A stretch of DNA of 48,893 nt from a virus (Duplodnaviria; Caudoviricetes), in the IMG/VR virus record IMGVR_UViG_3300037313_000210, positions 1-48,893 of that record. One strand, 5' to 3'. A program made the position numbers and the translations under genes. Positions 11,481-26,673 of the stretch are shown one piece after another; within the stretch, counting starts at the first letter, position 1; the number at the start of each line of letters is the position of its first letter. Under the pieces are notes generated by a model. The model was not told where the DNA came from, ran no database searches, and was given only the letters and a program-made list of their open reading frames with translations.

Positions 11481-11528
11481 ATTCTTACTTCCTTTCTTAA
11501 ATAATTGTGCGGCTTGGCTCTCCGACCG

Positions 11529-11595
11529 ACCCACCTTGGGAGAGGCTATGCGACCCGAAGGTTTCTGCTTTCGCTTCATCAGGCAAATGGTGGGC
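11529..11595 (-). ncRNA. Type I hammerhead ribozyme HH1
   Basis: GCCCACC-ATTT-GC-CTGATGA-AGCGAAAGCA-GAAA-CC-TTCG-GG-TC-GCA…GGTGGGT; predicted cleavage after GUC, between 11552 and 11551. Confidence 0.8.
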
Positions 11596-11642
11596 TGCGT
11601 CCCCAACTCTACCGCACTGGGGGACCTGTGCTCTGTTAGTTC

Positions 11643-12197
11643 TTACTCAGGAACGTCGTCGTCCAACTCGTCGAGTGCATCCTGCACTGTCTTAAGCTGT
11701 TGCTTCGGCATTTCATCCGTAGTGTACGTATCGCTGCCAAAGAACTCGTCATCCGTGCTGAGCGGAGCGAAGTCCTGTGAAACGTACGGAACTAGGTCGA
11801 GGACTCGAATCGCTCGGATGTAAACACCCTTCTTCTTGCCTACGCCGTAGTCCTTGACGACGAACTTTACGTCCACCTGCGAACCGTTGCCGATCAGGCG
11901 TCCGTCCCAAGCGTCGTTGTTGGCGTCCACGATGCGAAGAGGCTCGGCCTTTTCTCCGTTCGCCTTCATCTCTCGGTGCCGAAACGAAATGAACGTGTCC
12001 TCTCTGCTGTCACCTTCCTTAGGCTGCCGGAGGCGGTCTTGAATACCGAGCTTCTTGAGAAGGGTCCGACCTTCGGCGTCTGGCGTCAAGTCAATGGACC
12101 ACTCTCGTTCGCCGGTGAAACTGTTCATCCTCGGGGCACCGATTACCTTAGCCCAGTGAGCAATTCCACGAACGATAATGTTTTCTGTACTAGCTAT
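11643..12197 (-). CDS. ssb: Single-stranded DNA-binding protein (T7 gp2.5-like), probable ATA start
   Basis: RGIAHWAKV, LIGNGSQVDV, IRVLDLVPY, acidic C-terminal tail; in-frame TAG two codons upstream of the ATA; AAAGGT SD. Confidence 0.8.
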   Translation of the reverse strand: MASTENIIVRGIAHWAKVIGAPRMNSFTGEREWSIDLTPDAEGRTLLKKLGIQDRLRQPKEGDSREDTFISFRHREMKANGEKAEPLRIVDANNDAWDGRLIGNGSQVDVKFVVKDYGVGKKKGVYIRAIRVLDLVPYVSQDFAPLSTDDEFFGSDTYTTDEMPKQQLKTVQDALDELDDDVPE

Positions 12198-17583: not shown

Positions 17584-18321
17584 TCATCCTTGCTCGGATA
17601 TGAGTTGTCGAAATCCGCTGGCGTAGTCATCAACTGTACTCCCTTCTAATCCCGGTGCGGTGTTGACTTCGAGGACGTAGGCCCGCTGTCTTTCTTCGTT
17701 CCAGATAATATCCACTGCTCCAAAATCCAATCCAAGGGCACCCGTGGCCTTGATTGCCTGTTCTTCAACTCCGACAGGGGGATTAACGTCATTCCTGACG
17801 AAGATAAAACCATTTCCATGATTCCTTACTTTCCAGTTTGGATTGTCGCAGCGTGGATCACGGGCCTTTCTTTGGACCAGCACGACTCGCTTTCCGACCA
17901 CGTGAACTCGATACTCAGCTTTCTTGGGGACGTACTGGACGTAGAGAGGAGCACTCGGCAAGTCTCCGGCGTCTCGCAGTTCGATACCTTCGCCAGAATG
18001 TCCTGAAAGCTTGTGCCGGACAACCGTAAGGCCTTTCCAGTTAACCTGAGATACGTCAGCAGCAAAACTTGGCGTAGAAACCCCCGCATCCTGAAATCTA
18101 CGGAAGGATGCAAGCTTGTTGGCAGCGGTCGCAACGTTTCCCGCGAGGTTGAGGCATGATAGATTGCCTGCATTGGAATCTCCCCAGTTGATGATGATAT
18201 CGCCGGGACGGCGTATATACGTGGAGCCCTCTTTCTTGAGGACTTTACCCCCGAGGACGTCGGCCAACGCCTTGGCTGACCGACTCCCTTGCTTATACGG
18301 ATTGATTCTGATGCGTGTCAT
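17584..18321 (-). CDS. ATP-grasp peptide ligase (RimK-like, phiEco32/PaP3-type)
   Basis: IINWG, AANKL, GHSGEGI, EYRVHV, LDFGAVDII, VLEVNTAPGL. Confidence 0.92.
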   Translation of the reverse strand: MTRIRINPYKQGSRSAKALADVLGGKVLKKEGSTYIRRPGDIIINWGDSNAGNLSCLNLAGNVATAANKLASFRRFQDAGVSTPSFAADVSQVNWKGLTVVRHKLSGHSGEGIELRDAGDLPSAPLYVQYVPKKAEYRVHVVGKRVVLVQRKARDPRCDNPNWKVRNHGNGFIFVRNDVNPPVGVEEQAIKATGALGLDFGAVDIIWNEERQRAYVLEVNTAPGLEGSTVDDYASGFRQLISEQG

Positions 18322-18323
18322 AC

Positions 18324-19427
18324 TTATCCTTGAGCAAAAGTATTGGTGTTAATCGTGAATGCGTGAGCTGCGTTTAGATTCTGTTGCAGGTTTTGCATCG
18401 CTTGCATCTCAGCTGCGTTCCACTGATTTCCGGCAAATGTGTTCCCGTCCTCAGGCAAGTCCGGCTCAACGGCAACCCCGTAACCTCCCGCCACAACACG
18501 TCGAGTCTTCTTCGCAGTCTTCCTACCGAAAGGGTCGGAGGCAACCTTAACAGGATTGAACGTCGACCAGTCTCTTGAGTACGCAATGTCCTGAGCGAAC
18601 CGCATCCCCTCGAACAGCGAAGCCGAGACGTTGACTTCGTTCTGTACTGCTTGAAGGATAGCCGGAGCTTCGTTGCCGAACAACTCCGTGAAGAACTCCA
18701 TCGGACCTTGGATGGAGAACCGTTCGATGATGGTCCGCGGGTCTGTGTACTTCTCACTTTCGTCGTACAGACGTTTGAGGATGCGAACCCACTGCTTCAC
18801 CGGAGCGGCTTCGGTCAGTCCTCGCATGGTTCGGAACTCCACGGACCCGAACTTGTACAGCGCGGAGACGTTCAAGGCCGAGTAGTGCAGCCCTTCGGTG
18901 TCCATGCCGTACTCGCCTTTGTTCTCGAACCAGTTCTTGACCTCCGTAATAATAGCCGGTCCGTCCTTGGCACGAATGCAGAACAAGTTGCCTGCCCTGT
19001 GGTCCCCGCAGAAGTGCGACAAGACTTCCTCACAGATGAACCACAGAGCCAGCAGAGACGCCAGCCGGTTCTGGTAGAACGAGAGTACGTTAAGGTGGAC
19101 GTGGACGCTGGTACGCACGCTCTCGGCGAGCACGGCCTTGTTGACGGCGAACTCAGCCCAAAGGGCGTCTACGGCTGCGTCAACCTCGGTGAAGTCCAGC
19201 GGCTTACTAAGTACAAACTCGCCGTTGTCTGCTCCACGCAGAGAACCGTCTTGGTGGTATCCCCAGTACGTAGCCACCTGAGGCAGCTTCATCTTGGCGA
19301 ACGCCCCCGGCGTCTTTGACTCGCACTCAATTTCGAGGCCGACGTGTCCTTTCTTGACCCGCAAGCCAAGTTGTCCGGCAATCGTCAGGTCTTCGCCGAT
19401 CTTACTCGTCTTTTTAACAAAAACCAC
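18324..19427 (-). CDS. Putative amidoligase (glutamine synthetase-like COOH-NH2 ligase fold)
   Basis: GLEIECE, DGSLRG…EFV, RTSVHVHLN, YSALN, GSVEFR; GTG start with GGAG SD. Confidence 0.88.
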   Translation of the reverse strand: MVFVKKTSKIGEDLTIAGQLGLRVKKGHVGLEIECESKTPGAFAKMKLPQVATYWGYHQDGSLRGADNGEFVLSKPLDFTEVDAAVDALWAEFAVNKAVLAESVRTSVHVHLNVLSFYQNRLASLLALWFICEEVLSHFCGDHRAGNLFCIRAKDGPAIITEVKNWFENKGEYGMDTEGLHYSALNVSALYKFGSVEFRTMRGLTEAAPVKQWVRILKRLYDESEKYTDPRTIIERFSIQGPMEFFTELFGNEAPAILQAVQNEVNVSASLFEGMRFAQDIAYSRDWSTFNPVKVASDPFGRKTAKKTRRVVAGGYGVAVEPDLPEDGNTFAGNQWNAAEMQAMQNLQQNLNAAHAFTINTNTFAQG

Positions 19428-19443
19428 CTTGTCGTCTCCAAAG

Positions 19444-20211
19444 TTATTGCCTGAGTTTAATGTCGTGGAACTGGCGGGTTTCTTCAACCGCCTCTTTAAG
19501 ATGAGCAAACTTCTTGCCAAGTTCAACCGTAGGACGCTTGGTCGGAGGCACAATCCCAACCACGTCAGTTTTGTACCCGAGAAAGAAAGTGTCCATCGGA
19601 CCACGGACAATCGCGAAGTTCCTGTGGCAAGCCACCGAAGTGTTCTCCACGTTCGGGTCCAACATGTTCTCCATGCACTCTTCAGCACTCGGATGATTTC
19701 CTTTCACACAGTCGTAGAACTCCGGTCCGACGAGGCTGTCGAGACTGTTGTTGCCCACTCTCGACCGATCCGTAGTGACGGGATTACATTCGACCATCTG
19801 GCGGATCAAACCCTGCTGAGTCCTGCGTTCGGGTGAACGCTCCAAGAACAGGGCCCTGCCGTTTCGGTTCATCATACCGAGGGAAAACGGACGGAACTTG
19901 TTAAACGCCGGACTGTTGGCTTGTTTACGAAGAAGCTTCGTGTCTTTGTTCTCTTCCATCCACTTGTCCAGTGCAGGACCAAGCCGCTGATCCTGTCCCG
20001 GATACTGGGACACCGCCAGTGGGAACTTTCCGTTTTTGGCTGCCTCGTTCACGCTGTCTTGCACCGGCCAAAGATACAGCCGGAAGATGCCGTCTGCCCT
20101 GTGATTGGTGATTGCGATAACTCGAACAGGTTCACCGTCGTACGTGACCACGGTGTCGTAGAGGCGACGTTGCATCTCCTCTAGGTTTTCGTAGAAGTTG
20201 GGATGGAGCAT
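19444..20211 (-). CDS. Hypothetical protein within the amidoligase cluster
   Basis: 255 aa ORF between the two ligases; PFSLGMMN…FLERSPERRTQQGL. Confidence 0.75.
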   Translation of the reverse strand: MLHPNFYENLEEMQRRLYDTVVTYDGEPVRVIAITNHRADGIFRLYLWPVQDSVNEAAKNGKFPLAVSQYPGQDQRLGPALDKWMEENKDTKLLRKQANSPAFNKFRPFSLGMMNRNGRALFLERSPERRTQQGLIRQMVECNPVTTDRSRVGNNSLDSLVGPEFYDCVKGNHPSAEECMENMLDPNVENTSVACHRNFAIVRGPMDTFFLGYKTDVVGIVPPTKRPTVELGKKFAHLKEAVEETRQFHDIKLRQ

Positions 20212-20214
20212 GGT

Positions 20215-21054
20215 TTAAATCACTGACACAAGAGGATAGTGAATCGACCGGAACAACATGCTGGACCTGTCTCCTGTGTTAATCAGGTCGACGATTGCCG
20301 AGTTGTACTTCTTGTACGTCCCCTTGGACAACTCGTTGGTGGACATCGCATCCACGGCCCGCTGAAGCCTGTTCCAAACGTCTTTGCGGAGTTGCTTCGA
20401 CGTAATCCAGAAGTTACTCAAGACCCTGTACTCAACTCCGTAAGGCTTCGGACGAAACGCCCCGGCCTTGCCATACAGTTGACGGCGGGTTACGTCTGCG
20501 TCCTTCTGAACAGACCACGCCCCGAGAAACCAGTCGAGTTGCTTCACGAGATCGCGGCAGTGGCCTACGTGGATTTCGTCCGTCACCGGCATCGGCTCGT
20601 CTGCGCACCATCCGATGTGGACGTGGCCCGCTGCGGTACGCAGGAGCGGGTCTTCCGTGGTATCTGGATACGGGTTCACTTCACCCGACCAAGCGTTGAA
20701 GTCAGGGTCACACCCCAACTCCTTCGCCTTAGGCGGTTGAGCATCCATGACCGACTCGGAGAAGCGAACAGCCGGTTCGATGCGGAACCCGTACCCCTTC
20801 GGCAGCATTCCTTTCAGCTGCTTCAGAACGGTTACGATGTTGTCGTTCCACTCGTCGAAAGAACTTGCGGGGTCGATGTTGAATTCTGCCGCCATTCCGT
20901 CCACCTGAACCGCACCTTTGTCCACTTTGTGTGGCTCTTGTTTTGTTCCGGGGATCAGATCGACGGCAGAAACTAGTTCGTTCTTCTCGTTGGTAATGAA
21001 CAACTCGGGATCACAACCGAACGTGAACCCTTCGACACAGTGTAGTGCAGTCAT
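20215..21054 (-). CDS. phiEco32-like COOH-NH2 ligase type 2
   Basis: GCDPELF, GTKQEP, QVDGMAAEFN, GCDPDFNAW, RTAAGHVHIG, RRQLYGKAG, YGVEYRVLSNFW. Confidence 0.92.
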   Translation of the reverse strand: MTALHCVEGFTFGCDPELFITNEKNELVSAVDLIPGTKQEPHKVDKGAVQVDGMAAEFNIDPASSFDEWNDNIVTVLKQLKGMLPKGYGFRIEPAVRFSESVMDAQPPKAKELGCDPDFNAWSGEVNPYPDTTEDPLLRTAAGHVHIGWCADEPMPVTDEIHVGHCRDLVKQLDWFLGAWSVQKDADVTRRQLYGKAGAFRPKPYGVEYRVLSNFWITSKQLRKDVWNRLQRAVDAMSTNELSKGTYKKYNSAIVDLINTGDRSSMLFRSIHYPLVSVI

Positions 21055-21073
21055 AGTCAGTCTTCTCCGTTAG

Positions 21074-21253
21074 TTACATAAGCCAATAAATTATTTGAGC
21101 AGGGATCGCATTCCCTAGAATTAGCGTGATGAAGTACAAAGCCCACCCCAAAGGCCCCTCTACAACTTCAACGCCTAGATACAGGGCTAGGCTGAAGACA
21201 GCCACTTCGTAGGCGGCTATAAAGCAAATCAACAACGCAATGGCGATAATCAT
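21074..21253 (-). CDS. Small two-TM membrane protein (59 aa; not in ORF track)
   Basis: GGAG SD + ATG; MIIAIALLICFIAAYEVAVFSLALYLGVEVVEGPLGWALYFITLILGNAIPAQIIYWLM; fills the gap between neighbours. Confidence 0.75.
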   Translation of the reverse strand: MIIAIALLICFIAAYEVAVFSLALYLGVEVVEGPLGWALYFITLILGNAIPAQIIYWLM

Positions 21254-21262
21254 TGATAGCTC

Positions 21263-22354
21263 CTAAGCAACTTGAGGTAGTTCTTCTACGTAAATTCTCG
21301 TCTTCTCTGAGTTGGAGAACGACGAGTGATCGGGGCAGAGAATGATTTCGTCTTTCTTATAAATCGTAATTCCTTTATCTCCGTACTCGATCTTCGCCTC
21401 GCAGAACGTACAACCGTTGGCTGCCATTCCTTCGAACTCCTCACGAGTGATGTGCCCCGCGTACGGATTCACCTTGGACCCTTCAACGGTTACGAAAGGA
21501 AGAGGATCAGTCCTTCCACGGGAGATCGTCGTCGAGGAATTCGTCTTCTTCCACGGGCTTTTGGATGGGGTGTGGACTCCAAAGTTTGGCGAGGCTTGAG
21601 AGAAAGGGGCCGGCTCCTTACCCTCCAGCTTCTTGCAGACGGGTTTCTGAGCCTTGCCTGACATGAAGTCGGAGATGCTGTACTTGAAGTGGTAGTCCTC
21701 TGCGAACGCAAAGAAGCGGCAGCCTTGCTTGTCAGTTTTGATTTCCCTGTTGGCAAGGTGCCGGATACCAGAGTGAATCGTCTGCCACTCGGAGGCGTAG
21801 TACAGGAAGCGGTTGTCCTTAGTCACCGCGTTCCACAGACTGCGCTCTTTGTTGCGGAGGAAGTTAATCGTGCCTTCTTTAAGATCAACCCACGTAATCG
21901 CCCACGCACCTTCGCACAGCTTAATCGTCTCTTCAATGCCGATGGTGGCGATTGCAGCGATCAGCGCCATGCTGTCCACGGGAAACTTCTCGCCGACGGC
22001 CTTCTCTAAGTCGTTGTGGCTGGTGCCGAACAGCGTCCCGTTGTGTGCCCCGACGATGTGTCCGATGTGATACGGATGCGCGTTGAAGTCGTTGACACCA
22101 CCGCGAGTTGCCTTCCGGTTGTGACCTAGAAAAGCACACGACTGATTGGCGTTAAGAGCCTCCTTGAACTTCGGCATTTCAAAAAGGTGCAGCGGGTGAC
22201 TGGCCATTTTCGCAATCCGGACGTCTCCGTTCGAGCGGATCGCAGCCATTCCCGTAGAGTCTTCGCCCCTCCAGAAATCGTCCAACAGCATTCTCTTCAT
22301 CGGCTCTTCGTCACAGTACTGAAGAGCACCAACCATTCCTACGAGTCCGCACAT
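21263..22354 (-). CDS. Class II (Ntn) glutamine amidotransferase with C-terminal Cys/His cluster
   Basis: MCGLVG, RGEDSTG, GHNRKAT, AHP, AHNGT, VDS; no SIS domain; CTFC…CPDH tail. Confidence 0.9.
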   Translation of the reverse strand: MCGLVGMVGALQYCDEEPMKRMLLDDFWRGEDSTGMAAIRSNGDVRIAKMASHPLHLFEMPKFKEALNANQSCAFLGHNRKATRGGVNDFNAHPYHIGHIVGAHNGTLFGTSHNDLEKAVGEKFPVDSMALIAAIATIGIEETIKLCEGAWAITWVDLKEGTINFLRNKERSLWNAVTKDNRFLYYASEWQTIHSGIRHLANREIKTDKQGCRFFAFAEDYHFKYSISDFMSGKAQKPVCKKLEGKEPAPFSQASPNFGVHTPSKSPWKKTNSSTTISRGRTDPLPFVTVEGSKVNPYAGHITREEFEGMAANGCTFCEAKIEYGDKGITIYKKDEIILCPDHSSFSNSEKTRIYVEELPQVA

Positions 22355-23211
22355 TATTCTTTCTCTCCCTTCTTGGCCGGACTCGGAAGGCCGAGAATGA
22401 CCGAACGCTTGTGTCTGTAACGCTGTTCTTCAAGATACACGTGAGGGTTGTTGAGGATGTACTTCTCAACCATTTCGAGGCACCAGACGGTGTAGCGGAT
22501 GTACCCCGCGTACTCGGGATGCCCTTGGAAGCCGAGGCAGCAAGTTTCAGGAAGGAAAAACGCCTCGACGTCCTTCGTCCTGCCCGTTTGCTTCTGAGAC
22601 GGCTCAGGACCATACCACCGCTCGTCGGAGCAGAAGATGAACCCGAGGACTTCCATCCCCTCGCCTTGGATTACGGCTTGATGGTGAGTGGATGAAATCT
22701 TGTCGAGGTATTGCCCGTTCCCCGGTGTAGGCACCATTGGATGCTCGCCGTTGTGCTTGTCGAGGTGTTGAATAAGTTTGTATCCGTTCATCGCAGCCAA
22801 GAACTGCGCCCCACGGCAAATCCCGAGCATCGGAATCCGCTTCTTCAAGCACTCGACGTACAGCTCCATGTCCCGCTTGTCTCGGGCGGGATCGACGCTG
22901 GTGAGTGCGTGTGGCTTTTCGTGATAGATGACCGGATCGACGTCCGCCCCACCGCAGAACACAACGAGGTCGGCCTCGTCCACTGTGTTGGCTTTGTAAC
23001 ACCGAGCCCTGCCGAACATCGCCCCCATTTGAGCTTCGTAAGTGTCCGGCTCGGAAATGTACACGTTCATGTACAGTTCGGGGTACTTCACCAGCGAAGA
23101 CTTCATCAGCTGAACTTCGGTCTTACCTTCGGCTTCAGACACTTCTGGCTCTTTCTTCGGTTTGTTGCTATTCGCAGCCATTGCGAGAGCCTTTCGTCTA
23201 CGCGTGGACAT
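22354..23211 (-). CDS. Class I glutamine amidotransferase / peptidase C26 (gamma-glutamyl hydrolase-like)
   Basis: GGADVDP, LGICRGAQ, STHHQAV, FQGHPE triad. Confidence 0.9.
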   Translation of the reverse strand: MSTRRRKALAMAANSNKPKKEPEVSEAEGKTEVQLMKSSLVKYPELYMNVYISEPDTYEAQMGAMFGRARCYKANTVDEADLVVFCGGADVDPVIYHEKPHALTSVDPARDKRDMELYVECLKKRIPMLGICRGAQFLAAMNGYKLIQHLDKHNGEHPMVPTPGNGQYLDKISSTHHQAVIQGEGMEVLGFIFCSDERWYGPEPSQKQTGRTKDVEAFFLPETCCLGFQGHPEYAGYIRYTVWCLEMVEKYILNNPHVYLEEQRYRHKRSVILGLPSPAKKGEKE

Positions 23212-23602
23212 AGTGGTGGTGTCCTCCTTCCCACACACCGTTCTCTACGAGCAGCGTGTCGTGAACTTCGGGGTTGTACTCGTACACCCACACCGTCCTG
23301 CCCTCTTCGGTTCGGTACTGCGACCGCCCGTAGTAGTTCGGATAGCCCTCGTAGTTGTCGAGCATCTGTGGGAGGATTTCATCCGTTATGCGGTACACTT
23401 CACCCGTGACCGTGGGTTCCTCTGGATGAAACCGAGCACCGGCTTCGGCCACAGCTTTGAACCCCGGAAAACCTCCCAACGAATACATCTTACCGTTGAC
23501 ACGATCTTCTCCTACGAATTCGCTGCGGCCTTGCATGACGGAGCTGGCACCGAACCCGTGCTTGAGGGTTCCGTACACGAGGATGTGATCACCGACCTTC
23601 AC
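23198..23602 (-). CDS. Gamma-glutamylcyclotransferase (AIG2/GGCT-like)
   Basis: VYGTLK, GGFPG, VTGEVY, LDNYEGYP, WVY; GGAGG SD + GTG. Confidence 0.9.
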   Translation of the reverse strand: MKVGDHILVYGTLKHGFGASSVMQGRSEFVGEDRVNGKMYSLGGFPGFKAVAEAGARFHPEEPTVTGEVYRITDEILPQMLDNYEGYPNYYGRSQYRTEEGRTVWVYEYNPEVHDTLLVENGVWEGGHHHYVHA

Positions 23603-23924
23603 GGAGAGCCTCCAATGCTTTAGGAAAGCAAGTGCCGTGAACATACGTACCGTATGTTCGAACCAAGGTCGCAGCGCCCCTGAATCCGAACGCGTCTAGT
23701 ATTCGAGCAAGCCGCTCGCGCTCTTCCGCCGTGGGTTCGTCGGGGTTGATGATGTTGTAGCCATCAAATCTTCGGCCGTTGGGCCCGATGTAAGTGCCGT
23801 CTGGATTGCGGTAGACAAGCTGACGAGCCTTGTCGCAAATAAGTCGACCGTCGGAATGAAACGCCACCAGAGTGACTATCGAACCATTTCTGCACTTGTA
23901 TTCCTTACCGATTTCCCACTTCAT
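23589..23924 (-). CDS. Hypothetical protein (111 aa)
   Basis: AAGGAG SD + ATG; GKEYKCRNG small-phage-protein pattern. Confidence 0.7.
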   Translation of the reverse strand: MKWEIGKEYKCRNGSIVTLVAFHSDGRLICDKARQLVYRNPDGTYIGPNGRRFDGYNIINPDEPTAEERERLARILDAFGFRGAATLVRTYGTYVHGTCFPKALEALREGR

Positions 23925-24813: not shown

Positions 24814-25215
24814 TCACCTAACCCCCATAATTCTCACGGGTTCATCTCTCCACCAGTCCGGAACTTTGTCGTCCCGACAGTTTCCTGTACACTTGTGGAA
24901 TACGTTGCACCAACCGCCGGTGGAGTTGTGGAACCGAGACACGAGCCGAAAGTCCCTGTCCTTCAGTTCTTTGATCCAGCGCGGAGAAGACGTGATTTGT
25001 CCATCTGTGAGAATAACCTCAACGAGCTTGCCCCGGTTGTTTTCGGTGTTAGGTCCGACCTCAGCAAGTTTCTTTTTGAACTGTGTCAAAAACGTTGTGT
25101 ACCGTGGCTTACCCGTCCTTGAGCTGTAGCCGTTGAAAACACGTGACGTCGGTCCGCCGAATCCCCACAGGTGGCGAACGCCACAGCAGTTGCCGCCGTG
25201 TTGTGACAAGTTCAT
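24814..25215 (-). CDS. CC-motif protein paralog 3
   Basis: GGNCCGVRHLWGF…LTDGQ…WIKELKDRDFRLV…N…VF…VPDWW; GGAG SD. Confidence 0.7.
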   Translation of the reverse strand: MNLSQHGGNCCGVRHLWGFGGPTSRVFNGYSSRTGKPRYTTFLTQFKKKLAEVGPNTENNRGKLVEVILTDGQITSSPRWIKELKDRDFRLVSRFHNSTGGWCNVFHKCTGNCRDDKVPDWWRDEPVRIMGVR

Positions 25216-25265
25216 GGATGCTTCTCCGTTGCTCGTGTGTGTGAAAAATCGTGATAGATGAATGT

Positions 25266-25296
25266 GAGCAGTTGTTAACCGAGAATGCTCAGCTCG
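25266..25296 (-). ncRNA. H-type pseudoknot motif, copy A
   Basis: CGAG-CT-GAGCA-TT-CTCG-GTTAACAAC-TGCTC. Confidence 0.55.
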
Positions 25297-25299
25297 TCG

Positions 25300-25645
25300 G
25301 CGCGTGGATGGTTGAGGGGAGAGCTTAAGTCACCCTCTGTCGTGATCCAGTGGCCTAACTGAAATTGTTTTAGGGGAGATTGTCTCTCGACCCACAGGAC
25401 GTGGGGAGATTACGTTAAATCGTAAGGTTCTTCACTCGGGGCTTGGAGCCGCAGAGGAACCTCGCTTCGATCTTACTTGTACTTGTGGAAGTGACCATCG
25501 TTCCGGTCTTTCTCGTTGACGTCTCACTGTTGTCGTGAGACTTGCCCTCGTGCAGCTTGAGCCCCCGCCCTCGCTGTTTGCTTAAAGTTGGCTGGCTTAA
25601 ATGGCTCTTATCCGTCGGCCAGCCAGCGACGGAACCATTCGCACT
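25300..25645 (-). ncRNA. Candidate structured non-coding RNA with a large pseudoknot
   Basis: TCCGTCG/CGACGGA hairpin whose loop TGGCTGGC matches downstream GCCAGCCA; GTCTCAC/GTGAGAC hairpin; no ORF of 60 aa or more. Confidence 0.45.
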
Positions 25646-25695
25646 AATTACAAAACTATCTCTATCTCTCTATGTCTCTAGTTTAACTTAAACTC

Positions 25696-25707
25696 TTAAG
25701 TCTTCAT
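25696..25707 (-). other. Minigene ATG-AAG-ACT-TAA (MKT) with strong SD
   Basis: AAAGGAGG (25716-25723) 8 nt upstream of the ATG. Confidence 0.5.
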
Positions 25708-25785
25708 AGTCCGTTCCTCCTTTATTCACACGTCGGCGTGAATACTTCAAAAGAATAGGTGGTGAGCTTAGGTACTCATTTATTC

Positions 25786-25853
25786 CCCGACTGGGAGGAC
25801 TCCACGCGACGCCGTAGCGTTTCTGCTTGCGCTTCGTCAGGCGAAATGTCGGG
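25786..25853 (-). ncRNA. Type I hammerhead ribozyme HH2
   Basis: CCCGAC-ATTT-CGC-CTGACGA-AGCGCAAGCA-GAAA-CGC-TACG-GCG-TC-GCG…GTCGGG; predicted cleavage between 25808 and 25807. Confidence 0.8.
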
Positions 25854-25898
25854 CCAGATGCTCCAATGTCCTCACCTCGGGAGCCAACGCCTCTTTAA

Positions 25899-26501
25899 TT
25901 ACTTCAGCGAAACGATCCGCATCGCCGCACCAGCCCGAGGCTTGTGGCAGCGGTCGAACAGTTCTTGCCACTTGTGCGGGGCGACTTCGCGCAGCACGGC
26001 CTCAACCAGTGCCTTGTCGATCACCTTGCTTCCGGCGTTCTTCTTGACGGAGATTGAGAACTCCGCCGAGTTGTACGTCATCTGCGTTTCGCCTTCGACG
26101 TAATCGGAAGGATCACCGAACACACCTTCTTTTGCAGCTTGTTCAGCCGCTTGCTCAAGGCGCTTGTTACAACGCCGAGCTACGTGATCCCACATGGCGA
26201 ACTCGGCAGCCGCCTGTCCGTTGTTGTGACTGCGAGACACAGGGAATTGCGTCTGAGGCAGCTTCTCCGTACCGAAGGCGTTGATGAACCCGTCTAACGA
26301 GTCCTTCGCGTCCTTCGCCGTCTTGCCTTCGGGGTCGGCGTGTTCCGGTAGGTCCAGAACTACGTCCACCTTCATCTGCGGAGGCTGCTCGACACCGCCG
26401 AACATTTCCTTCACTCTGTCTTTGCTGTTAGGGGAAGGCGGCTGCGAGGTTGCCCCCGCCTCCGGGGCTTTGATGCCCAGCGTCTTTCGTTTGTTAGCCA
26501 T
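25899..26501 (-). CDS. Hypothetical early protein (200 aa)
   Basis: AAGGAG SD + ATG; phage-like codon use. Confidence 0.8.
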   Translation of the reverse strand: MANKRKTLGIKAPEAGATSQPPSPNSKDRVKEMFGGVEQPPQMKVDVVLDLPEHADPEGKTAKDAKDSLDGFINAFGTEKLPQTQFPVSRSHNNGQAAAEFAMWDHVARRCNKRLEQAAEQAAKEGVFGDPSDYVEGETQMTYNSAEFSISVKKNAGSKVIDKALVEAVLREVAPHKWQELFDRCHKPRAGAAMRIVSLK

Positions 26502-26673
26502 GTTCTTCTCCTTCGAGAATGTTCGCACAAATCAACTCAATTCGCTTGCGTTCTACAATCGACGCCGCTACGTTTAAGCCTGCGCCAACGAACGCCTTAG
26601 CGGCGAACGAGCCTTCTATTTCTTCAGCCTTAATGGCGTCGACTAGCTCGCTAAGTAACTTATCGTGATCCAT
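26494..26673 (-). CDS. Small hypothetical protein (59 aa)
   Basis: MDHDKLLSELVDAIKAEE…; stop overlaps the start region of the next gene. Confidence 0.55.
   Translation of the reverse strand: MDHDKLLSELVDAIKAEEIEGSFAAKAFVGAGLNVAASIVERKRIELICANILEGEEHG

Follow-up and report, generated by a model that had tools for sequence, protein, structure and literature searches.

We found that HH2, a hammerhead at 25786-25853 on the minus strand of the window (the whole stretch of DNA analysed, 48,893 nucleotides), lies inside a larger conserved RNA of about 130 nt (25761-25889), which is built of four covarying helices and whose scaffold occurs in many unrelated phages. As read from the sequences, this host RNA exists without an insert, with an internal hammerhead, or in permuted order and preceded by the hammerhead. 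No catalogued family matches it, and it is new relative to Rfam and to the literature searched; the hammerhead itself is of a known kind, with a new, doubly expanded base of stem II that current Rfam models miss. The original prediction of a hammerhead variant is partly supported, having missed the pseudoknots and the larger host RNA.

HH1 and HH2 in a soil phage genome

The window is the genome of an uncultured soil tailed phage, with genes for terminase, portal, coat, DNA polymerase, primase-helicase, ribonucleotide reductase and lysis, and also with an amidoligase/glutamine amidotransferase cluster (17584-23644, minus strand: ATP-grasp ligase, amidoligase, COOH-NH2 ligase, two glutamine amidotransferases and gamma-glutamyl cyclotransferase). 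Matching DNA was found in 11 soil and rhizosphere metagenome runs, 9 of them possible sources of the window, and no RNA sequencing runs were among the runs matching the window. The HH1 and HH2 stretches agree letter for letter with contigs of one run, possibly the source of this DNA. No close cultured relative was found (megablast of 20-32 kb of the window against phages, 0 matches), the coat protein matches known phages at only 23-32%, and no tRNA was found in the window. A relative of the window phage has a 69-aa ORF at the position of HH1.

A hammerhead had been predicted here, with its strand left unstated, and HH2 is a genuine hammerhead-type motif of type I, predicted to be self-cleaving: its CUGANGA, GAAA and NUH core surrounds three helices, with an open stem I. 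Read 5' to 3', it consists of CCCGAC, AUUU, CGC, CUGACGA, stem II (A-GC-GCAA-GC-A), GAAA, stem III (CGC-UACG-GCG) and UC, followed across the predicted cut by GCG, UGGA, GUCCUC, CCA and GUCGGG. The same architecture, proposed for a site some 14 kb away, is indeed present in HH1 (core 11576-11582, minus strand, 14,258 nt from HH2), with the stems as then quoted. In both motifs the core is complete and follows the type I order, proximal stem I has 3 bp, the triplet is GUC, and stem II has 2 bp with an A on either side. The compensatory changes claimed between them are found in two pairs of the outer stem, one pair of proximal stem I and one of stem III. The letters AUUU also occur in both as predicted, but in HH1 the last U pairs within stem I. 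The supposed CUCCCA loop is not free, as it base-pairs with the 3' tail beyond the predicted element and forms half of a pseudoknot; AUUU and CUCCCA do not define one subtype either, HH1 and HH2 belonging to different junction subfamilies of the larger RNA.

25805..25843, minus strand: type I hammerhead HH2, from a reading of the sequence, with the cut placed by the hammerhead consensus
25841-25843 with 25805-25807, minus strand: stem I of HH2, 3 bp
25834-25840, minus strand: CUGACGA core of HH2
25824-25833, minus strand: stem II of HH2, A-GC-GCAA-GC-A
25820-25823, minus strand: GAAA of HH2
25810-25819, minus strand: stem III of HH2
between 25808 and 25807, minus strand: predicted cut of HH2 after GUC, placed by the hammerhead consensus
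11549..11585, minus strand: HH1, a type I hammerhead predicted to be cut between 11552 and 11551
25899..26528, minus strand: 209-aa ORF of no known family, on the same strand as the HH2 host RNA and ending 10 nt upstream of it
11643..12128, minus strand: 161-aa ORF with an acidic tail, directly upstream of HH1

A loose scan of the window for hammerhead cores gave four candidates, with stems of 3-4 bp in HH1 and HH2 and of only 2 bp in the other two. Folding energy did not single out HH1 and HH2 (z -0.83 and -0.01), and the lowest-energy folds of their regions are not the hammerhead. With pseudoknots left out of the model, the best fold of HH2 constrained to the hammerhead lies 6.5 kcal/mol above the lowest fold, this gap having a median of 3.1 and an upper quartile of 6.3 kcal/mol in the family (n=88). 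HH2 is also alone among 106 copies in having a C·U mismatch at its position in helix d. Given this mismatch and the larger than usual misfolding gap, HH2 may be in decay or may cleave slowly.

No promoter-like or terminator-like site was found around HH2 (25150-26100), and no relatives of the 209-aa ORF upstream of it were found. The 161-aa ORF could be single-strand-binding-like, judging by its position and acidic tail, with no profile match. The roughly 540 nt downstream of HH2 (25215-25757, minus strand) contain no ORF of 80 aa; they hold hairpins, an AG-rich tract and a very short ORF preceded by a run that resembles a ribosome-binding site.

A double pseudoknot in three arrangements

The helices of the host RNA follow the order a-b-a'-c-(insert)-d-c'-d'-b', and the RNA consists of two look-alike halves, each of the form lead-X-CCA-Y-loop-X'-junction-Z, with Y of one half pairing with Z of the other. 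The junctions CGUKG, UGACA, AUCURG, GYGGAG, GAAUAAMU and CUAG are near invariant.

25761..25889, minus strand: whole HH2 host RNA, a double pseudoknot with the hammerhead between its two halves, from covariation and a model of hammerhead-less copies
25860..25889, minus strand: half 1, with CGUUG lead and helix a (25880-25884 with 25860-25864)
25871-25876, minus strand: 5' strand of helix b, in the loop of helix a
25848..25859, minus strand: conserved AUCUGG junction and 5' strand of helix c (the outer stem I of the original prediction)
25761..25807, minus strand: half 2, with GCGUGGA lead, GAAUAAAU loop and CUAAG junction
25795-25800 with 25772-25777, minus strand: helix d, with one C·U mismatch
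25786-25791, minus strand: 3' strand of helix c
25761-25766, minus strand: 3' strand of helix b
11507..11634, minus strand: HH1 host RNA, with the same four helices and other junctions
11620-11625 with 11599-11604 and 11612-11617 with 11507-11512, minus strand: helices a and b of the HH1 host RNA
11589-11594 with 11530-11535 and 11539-11544 with 11518-11523, minus strand: helices c and d of the HH1 host RNA

The fold into helices a, b, c and d is shown at the level of covariation. Across 106 distinct copies, pairing reaches 99.4-99.5% in helices a, c and d, compared with 72-74% in shuffled ones, and all 6 bp of helix b are formed in 105 of the 106, compared with about 20 in shuffles; this set (107 found, 1 unparsed) mixes core-selected and scaffold-selected loci. 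Anchors fixed c and d, and best matches were taken for the 5' strand of a and for b on both of its strands. Among 17 hammerhead-less copies, both partners vary in 21 of 25 pairs, a number reached in 0/500 shuffles, and pairing drops to 36-56% in slid controls; helix b is only 65% paired in this alignment owing to an alignment slip. A covariance model built from these 17 copies matches HH2 at 25769-25884 (E 3.5e-8) and weakly the first hairpin of HH1 (E 1.2). HH1 and 13 hand-picked relatives keep the four helices, and for any helix the observed pairing is reached in 0/300 derangements. Junction sequences differ strongly between HH1-type and HH2-type copies; inside the HH2 subfamily they hardly change from phage to phage, even where the hosts are very different. 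The scaffold copies are mutually related, so these counts are not counts of independent events.

A scaffold-only pattern matched 120 viral loci (38/64 parts of the viral set scanned); with 9 dropped for lack of helix d, the remainder gave 98 distinct copies, 74 with a hammerhead, 21 with a short linker and no hammerhead, and 3 unparsed. The 3-bp stem I is intact in all 74 hammerheads, and two scaffold copies have a compensatory U3-A8 core, a sign that catalysis is under selection. The linker of insert-less copies is 3-4 nt long, and these copies are unclustered, the nearest neighbour having a hammerhead in 15/18, as expected by chance. A permuted-order pattern matched 51 viral loci, with 36 distinct matches (the EhYP and Pappous records included), of which 25 are real and 11 chance. 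All 25 have a hammerhead directly 5', though it was absent from the search pattern, with helix a 100% paired and helix b perfect in 25/25. In SDFMU_EhYP (an Enterobacter phage) and Pappous (a Pectobacterium phage), the halves are reversed and joined by a hairpin, with the hammerhead in front. The predicted cut falls one base before the CGYGG of half 2 in every parsed hammerhead-bearing copy, and the first bases of this NCGYGG also form stem I of the hammerhead; no hammerhead was seen by eye upstream of standard-order copies. Cultured examples include Gaia (U3-A8 core, A·A), Constance (G-C) and phiGD24-3, and Mwe-JY26 without a hammerhead. A scan of genome contigs (11/64 parts) gave 120 loci, 10 of which passed the helix d filter and 3 of which looked real by eye. 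The search for hammerhead-less HH1-type copies found 0, with a pattern so strict that the result carries no weight, and a looser pattern was dropped for its estimated 8400 or so matches, mostly chance.

Some copies have further features. A UGACA-NNN-CGGAAAG repeat follows the scaffold in eight loci (L623, L102, L062, L117, L036, L011, L027 and L206), on both sides of it in L623. Another eight (L352, L354, L378, L390, L402, L434, L462 and L515) form a subfamily with a long stem III extension, in which UGAC of loop II is complementary to GUCA in the extension, possibly an extra pseudoknot. L732 and L758 have a normal half 1, with an altered cut triplet or no half 2 past the hammerhead.

The copies share no neighbour gene among 313 ORFs of 60 loci, and Pfam assignments on 70 of the 107 nearest ORFs fall into unrelated families. 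Downstream of them come unrelated ORFs at distances of about 10 to more than 800 nt, and many copies precede tRNAs: a tRNA lies within 300 nt of 6/18 insert-less and 19/88 hammerhead copies (25/106; raw counts with no background rate), and the copy starts within 50 nt of a detected tRNA 3' end in 4/18 and 4/88. No partner protein such as an RNA ligase was seen among flanking ORFs (about 1.5 kb). The permuted cassette of EhYP lies after the capsid-gene terminator, inside a long closing stem which may be an RNase III site, and its sister phages phiKDA1 and Entb_48 have the same closing stem with different contents. This permuted cassette is shared, at 96-99% identity, by a T7-like phage and 15/5426 E. 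coli genomes, lying between the Q antiterminator and holin in the one genome inspected, and a distant permuted copy occurs in 10 Acinetobacter plasmid records. With such varied contexts and exchange with other cargo, the element behaves as a self-contained accessory cassette.

In phiKDA1 and Entb_48 (L639:702-790 and L640) the closing stem has a z of -5.6 and encloses a two-hairpin cargo of about 40 nt, with a possible second structured element just 3'; this region has no Rfam match and as a query matched 124 phage records, including the late leader of HK629. The Acinetobacter plasmid copy (L643, about 2460-2510) comes right after a tRNA-like 3' end and is probably inactive, an A replacing the catalytic G12. 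In Mwe-JY26, tRNA-like genes unannotated in the record flank the hammerhead-less copy (L119:1355-1440 and 1557-1644).

The base of stem II

A 21-nt core pattern of the HH1/HH2 type matched 117 viral loci, and a script sorted the 86 distinct matches into 71 hammerheads of type I or III and 15 that are neither. The 71 comprise 35 of type I with helix c (all four helices being present in 31), 33 of type III and 3 other type I; the sorting is approximate and missed at least L041. In metagenomes the same pattern matched at least 119 loci; the 111 matches among those listed comprise 40 type I with helix c (33 with all four helices), 53 type III, 6 other type I and 12 neither. When both odd positions of stem II were left free, A·A was found in 96 of 104 loci, followed by C·A (5), G-C (2) and U-A (1), which corroborates the claim that these oddities are under selection and not decay. 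The A·A is tied neither to a 2-bp stem II (12/18 A·A copies have 3-5 bp) nor to the HH1/HH2 architecture, type III hammerheads making up 33/86 viral matches, both contrary to what had been suggested. A large group of type III hammerheads (L021, L088, L043, L001, L084 and others) has the same A-GC-GAAA-GC-A stem II and a hairpin stem I with a UGUGU-like loop; a ribosome-binding site and start codon come next, and the scaffold was not seen.

Of the 74 scaffold-selected hammerheads, 35 begin stem II with G-C, 18 with A·A, 13 with U·U, 4 with C·A and 4 with another combination. The pair after A·A or C·A is G-C in 22/22 copies, compared with 8/35 in the G-C group, and the cut-site base is A in 0/22 of the former and 22/35 of the latter, comparisons whose Fisher values are overstated by the relatedness of the copies. 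So constant a G-C favours an intact G10.1-C11.1 pair flanked by a single extra base on either side. The A·A flanking the 2-bp stem II is present in both motifs as described, but as a mismatch replacing a pair it is less well explained: it more likely represents two extra bases around the intact pair. For this reason an A·A-to-G-C repair, proposed with the original prediction, would be inadequate as the sole control.

The search for a published variant, also proposed there, gave no exact match for the two-sided A·A in the accessible literature; an extra A is known in the viroid CChMVd, where it is on the A9 side. The CChMVd (+) hammerhead is active with this extra unpaired A at the base of stem II (PMC2632901, accessible parts; see also De la Pena and Flores 2001). 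It resembles HH2 in tolerating an extra base beside the first stem II pair, but has one such base, whereas the HH2 family has one per side, fixed as A·A or C·A. A cut-site A is never seen in these copies (0/22), unlike in their own G-C relatives. A two-sided extension, A·A or C·A, was not found in print as far as the accessible texts go, and those of PMC13481778, PMC8865084, PMC3376415 and PMC4604425 hold nothing on the A·A variant.

Maturation, possible roles and known systems

These observations are best explained by HH2 being a type I hammerhead inserted between the two halves of a conserved double-pseudoknot phage RNA. We consider the following course of maturation rather likely from the sequences: the ribozyme would cleave after GUC, so that half 1 ends in a 2',3'-cyclic phosphate and half 2 begins with a 5'-OH; stem I, only 3 bp long and partly made of the NCG of the scaffold, would melt and be released; and the halves, held together by b and c, would fold into a mature RNA like the insert-less form. 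Since the cut site always lies just before NCGYGG, the hammerhead likely matures its host RNA. Against maturation count the standard-order copies, upstream of which no hammerhead was seen by eye, so that half 1 would not need a free 5' end; the insert-less copies, which do without any cut; and, for HH2 itself, the C·U mismatch and the misfolding gap.

The mature product is likely a stand-alone small RNA that would act in trans. We hypothesise, as the least certain step, that this stable product titrates a host protein or signal during infection, as a decoy or sponge; by analogy with other phage RNAs such an activity is conceivable and perhaps somewhat less probable than its absence. Among roles for the mature RNA we rank a trans decoy or sponge first, protection of ends in cis next, and catalysis last. 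The difference between HH1-type and HH2-type junctions argues against one fixed binding pocket for all. The reading as a whole, a new pseudo-twofold and permutable phage RNA of about 100 nt with a built-in hammerhead, moving between unrelated phages as a cassette and acting in trans as an anti-defence sponge or decoy (or as a new ribozyme), is tentative and comes near to an even chance without reaching it.

Both HH1 and HH2 are found on the coding strand, either between ORFs or directly past one, and the hammerhead could instead act in cis by cutting an operon transcript, with the knotted halves shielding the new ends from exonucleases. Such mRNA processing was proposed for phage hammerheads (Perreault 2011, PMC3088659, accessible parts), copies are often found among tRNAs (the 6/18 and 19/88 within 300 nt, with no background rate), and a shared topology with differing junctions suits a purely mechanical role. 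We nevertheless regard it as unlikely: the pieces of an internally cut mRNA would remain tethered via b and c, the permuted copies lie entirely 3' of the cut and within a closing stem, and junction bases hardly vary in the HH2 subfamily across very different hosts. Conserved unpaired junctions and varied gene context are typical of small ribozymes, so the scaffold itself might be a ligase or nuclease acting at the linker before NCGYGG, with removal of the hammerhead and joining giving the insert-less form or a circle. The 3-4 nt linker does resemble the product of joining near helix c to the 3' product of the hammerhead, and the insert-less copies are unclustered at chance level (15/18); but no Rfam ribozyme family is matched, the A after helix c is not retained in all permuted copies, and simple gain or loss of the insert at the DNA level also explains the linker, which makes a catalytic scaffold improbable.

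Pseudoknots speed hammerheads with a stem II of 1-2 bp (Perreault 2011, PMC3088659, accessible parts) and stem I in the HH1/HH2 family has only 3 bp, so that the pseudoknots could be mere tertiary supports rescuing a weak-stemmed hammerhead, close to the original prediction. This is largely refuted and very improbable, because the scaffold is kept without a hammerhead in 21/98 copies, helix c is not an extension of stem I in permuted copies, and the same stem II occurs in type III hammerheads. Lowest of all we place a ligand-sensing riboswitch or allosteric ribozyme controlling a downstream gene, for which the pseudo-twofold pseudoknot architecture and conserved junctions would speak: the downstream ORFs are unrelated and at variable distance (about 10 to more than 800 nt), many copies precede tRNAs, and no terminator-like site was found near HH2. 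A riboswitch class was rejected likewise, the 313 ORFs of 60 loci being unrelated and giving no fixed place 5' of one gene class.

For maturation of the host RNA by its hammerhead, the wider interest is that the purpose of many hammerheads in phage genomes is an open question (accessible parts of PMC6155905 and PMC6765202), and here one set has a visible target, with the predicted cut at the same base in two gene orders. The ribozyme-free versions are a natural control, the halves can be joined in either order, and presence in Gaia, Constance, SDFMU_EhYP, Pappous, Mwe-JY26 and E. coli prophages gives direct experimental access.

Rfam gave nothing in the window at gathering score, and at E<=10 neither HH2, HH1, the permuted scaffold nor any of six insert-less copies had a relevant match; the best overlap of the scaffold in Rfam 15 is an 18-nt hairpin to RAGATH-25 (E 3), and RF00163 (Hammerhead_1) gives 28.7 bits to a relative whose stem II is ordinary, against a threshold of 34. 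Pistol, twister, hatchet, glmS and SAM were set apart by helix order and by absent Rfam matches. Membership in the pseudoknot hammerhead (RAGATH-1, RF03152) was rejected, loop II being GNAA or freely varying in the HH2 family and no Rfam match being found. That hammerhead resembles HH2 in its short stem II and pseudoknot, but its loop II itself pseudoknots and G10.1-C11.1 stacks directly on A9·G12 (PMC11300833, accessible parts), whereas HH2 has a GNAA tetraloop and pseudoknots outside the ribozyme. The RF00163 and phage hammerheads of Perreault 2011 (PMC3088659, accessible parts) share with HH2 the CUGANGA/GAAA/NUH core and open stem I; a 2-bp stem II is common there, several lie between phage genes, and the U·U closure and U3-A8 covariation described are also seen in the HH2 family. 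Their pseudoknots link stems I and II, whereas those of HH2 belong to a separate RNA, and in the PaP3 and LUZ24 hammerheads stem II is ordinary and the scaffold absent. Neither the A·A or C·A base nor the scaffold was found in the accessible main text and supplements, and the motif is absent from the alignments, a weak null as the alignment is incomplete and possibly gapped. The permutations of Eckert 2023 are, in its accessible part, inside the hammerhead itself. No description of the host RNA was found in the accessible literature; an earlier unnamed entry in candidate-RNA catalogues is conceivable.

A type III antitoxin RNA was rejected, as the copies are single, with neither a repeat array and cognate toxin nor a conserved neighbour. 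HDV-like and theta ribozymes were also rejected for the scaffold: the HDV layout is a P1-P2-P3-P1.1-P4 nested double pseudoknot, and the scaffold has the order a-b-a'-c-d-c'-d'-b', no P3 or P1.1 and only 3 nt between d and c', with no Rfam match for six insert-less copies. The theta ribozymes of gut phages are like the scaffold in being double pseudoknots near phage tRNAs, and like the hammerhead here in making the end of a neighbouring RNA (bioRxiv 10.1101/2023.06.13.544163, accessible parts). Unlike in the theta setting, a tRNA 3' end lies within 50 nt of only 4/18 and 4/88 scaffold copies. GOLLD and ROOL are far larger than the scaffold RNA, which differs from them and from pseudo-ToxI in that no Rfam match, tandem array or fixed partner gene was found. 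With GOLLD and ROOL, orphan structured phage RNAs near tRNAs, it shares a stand-alone nature (PMC5737381, accessible parts), and the pseudo-ToxI decoy RNAs (PMC3475682), themselves pseudoknot RNAs, provide a precedent for the function proposed here.
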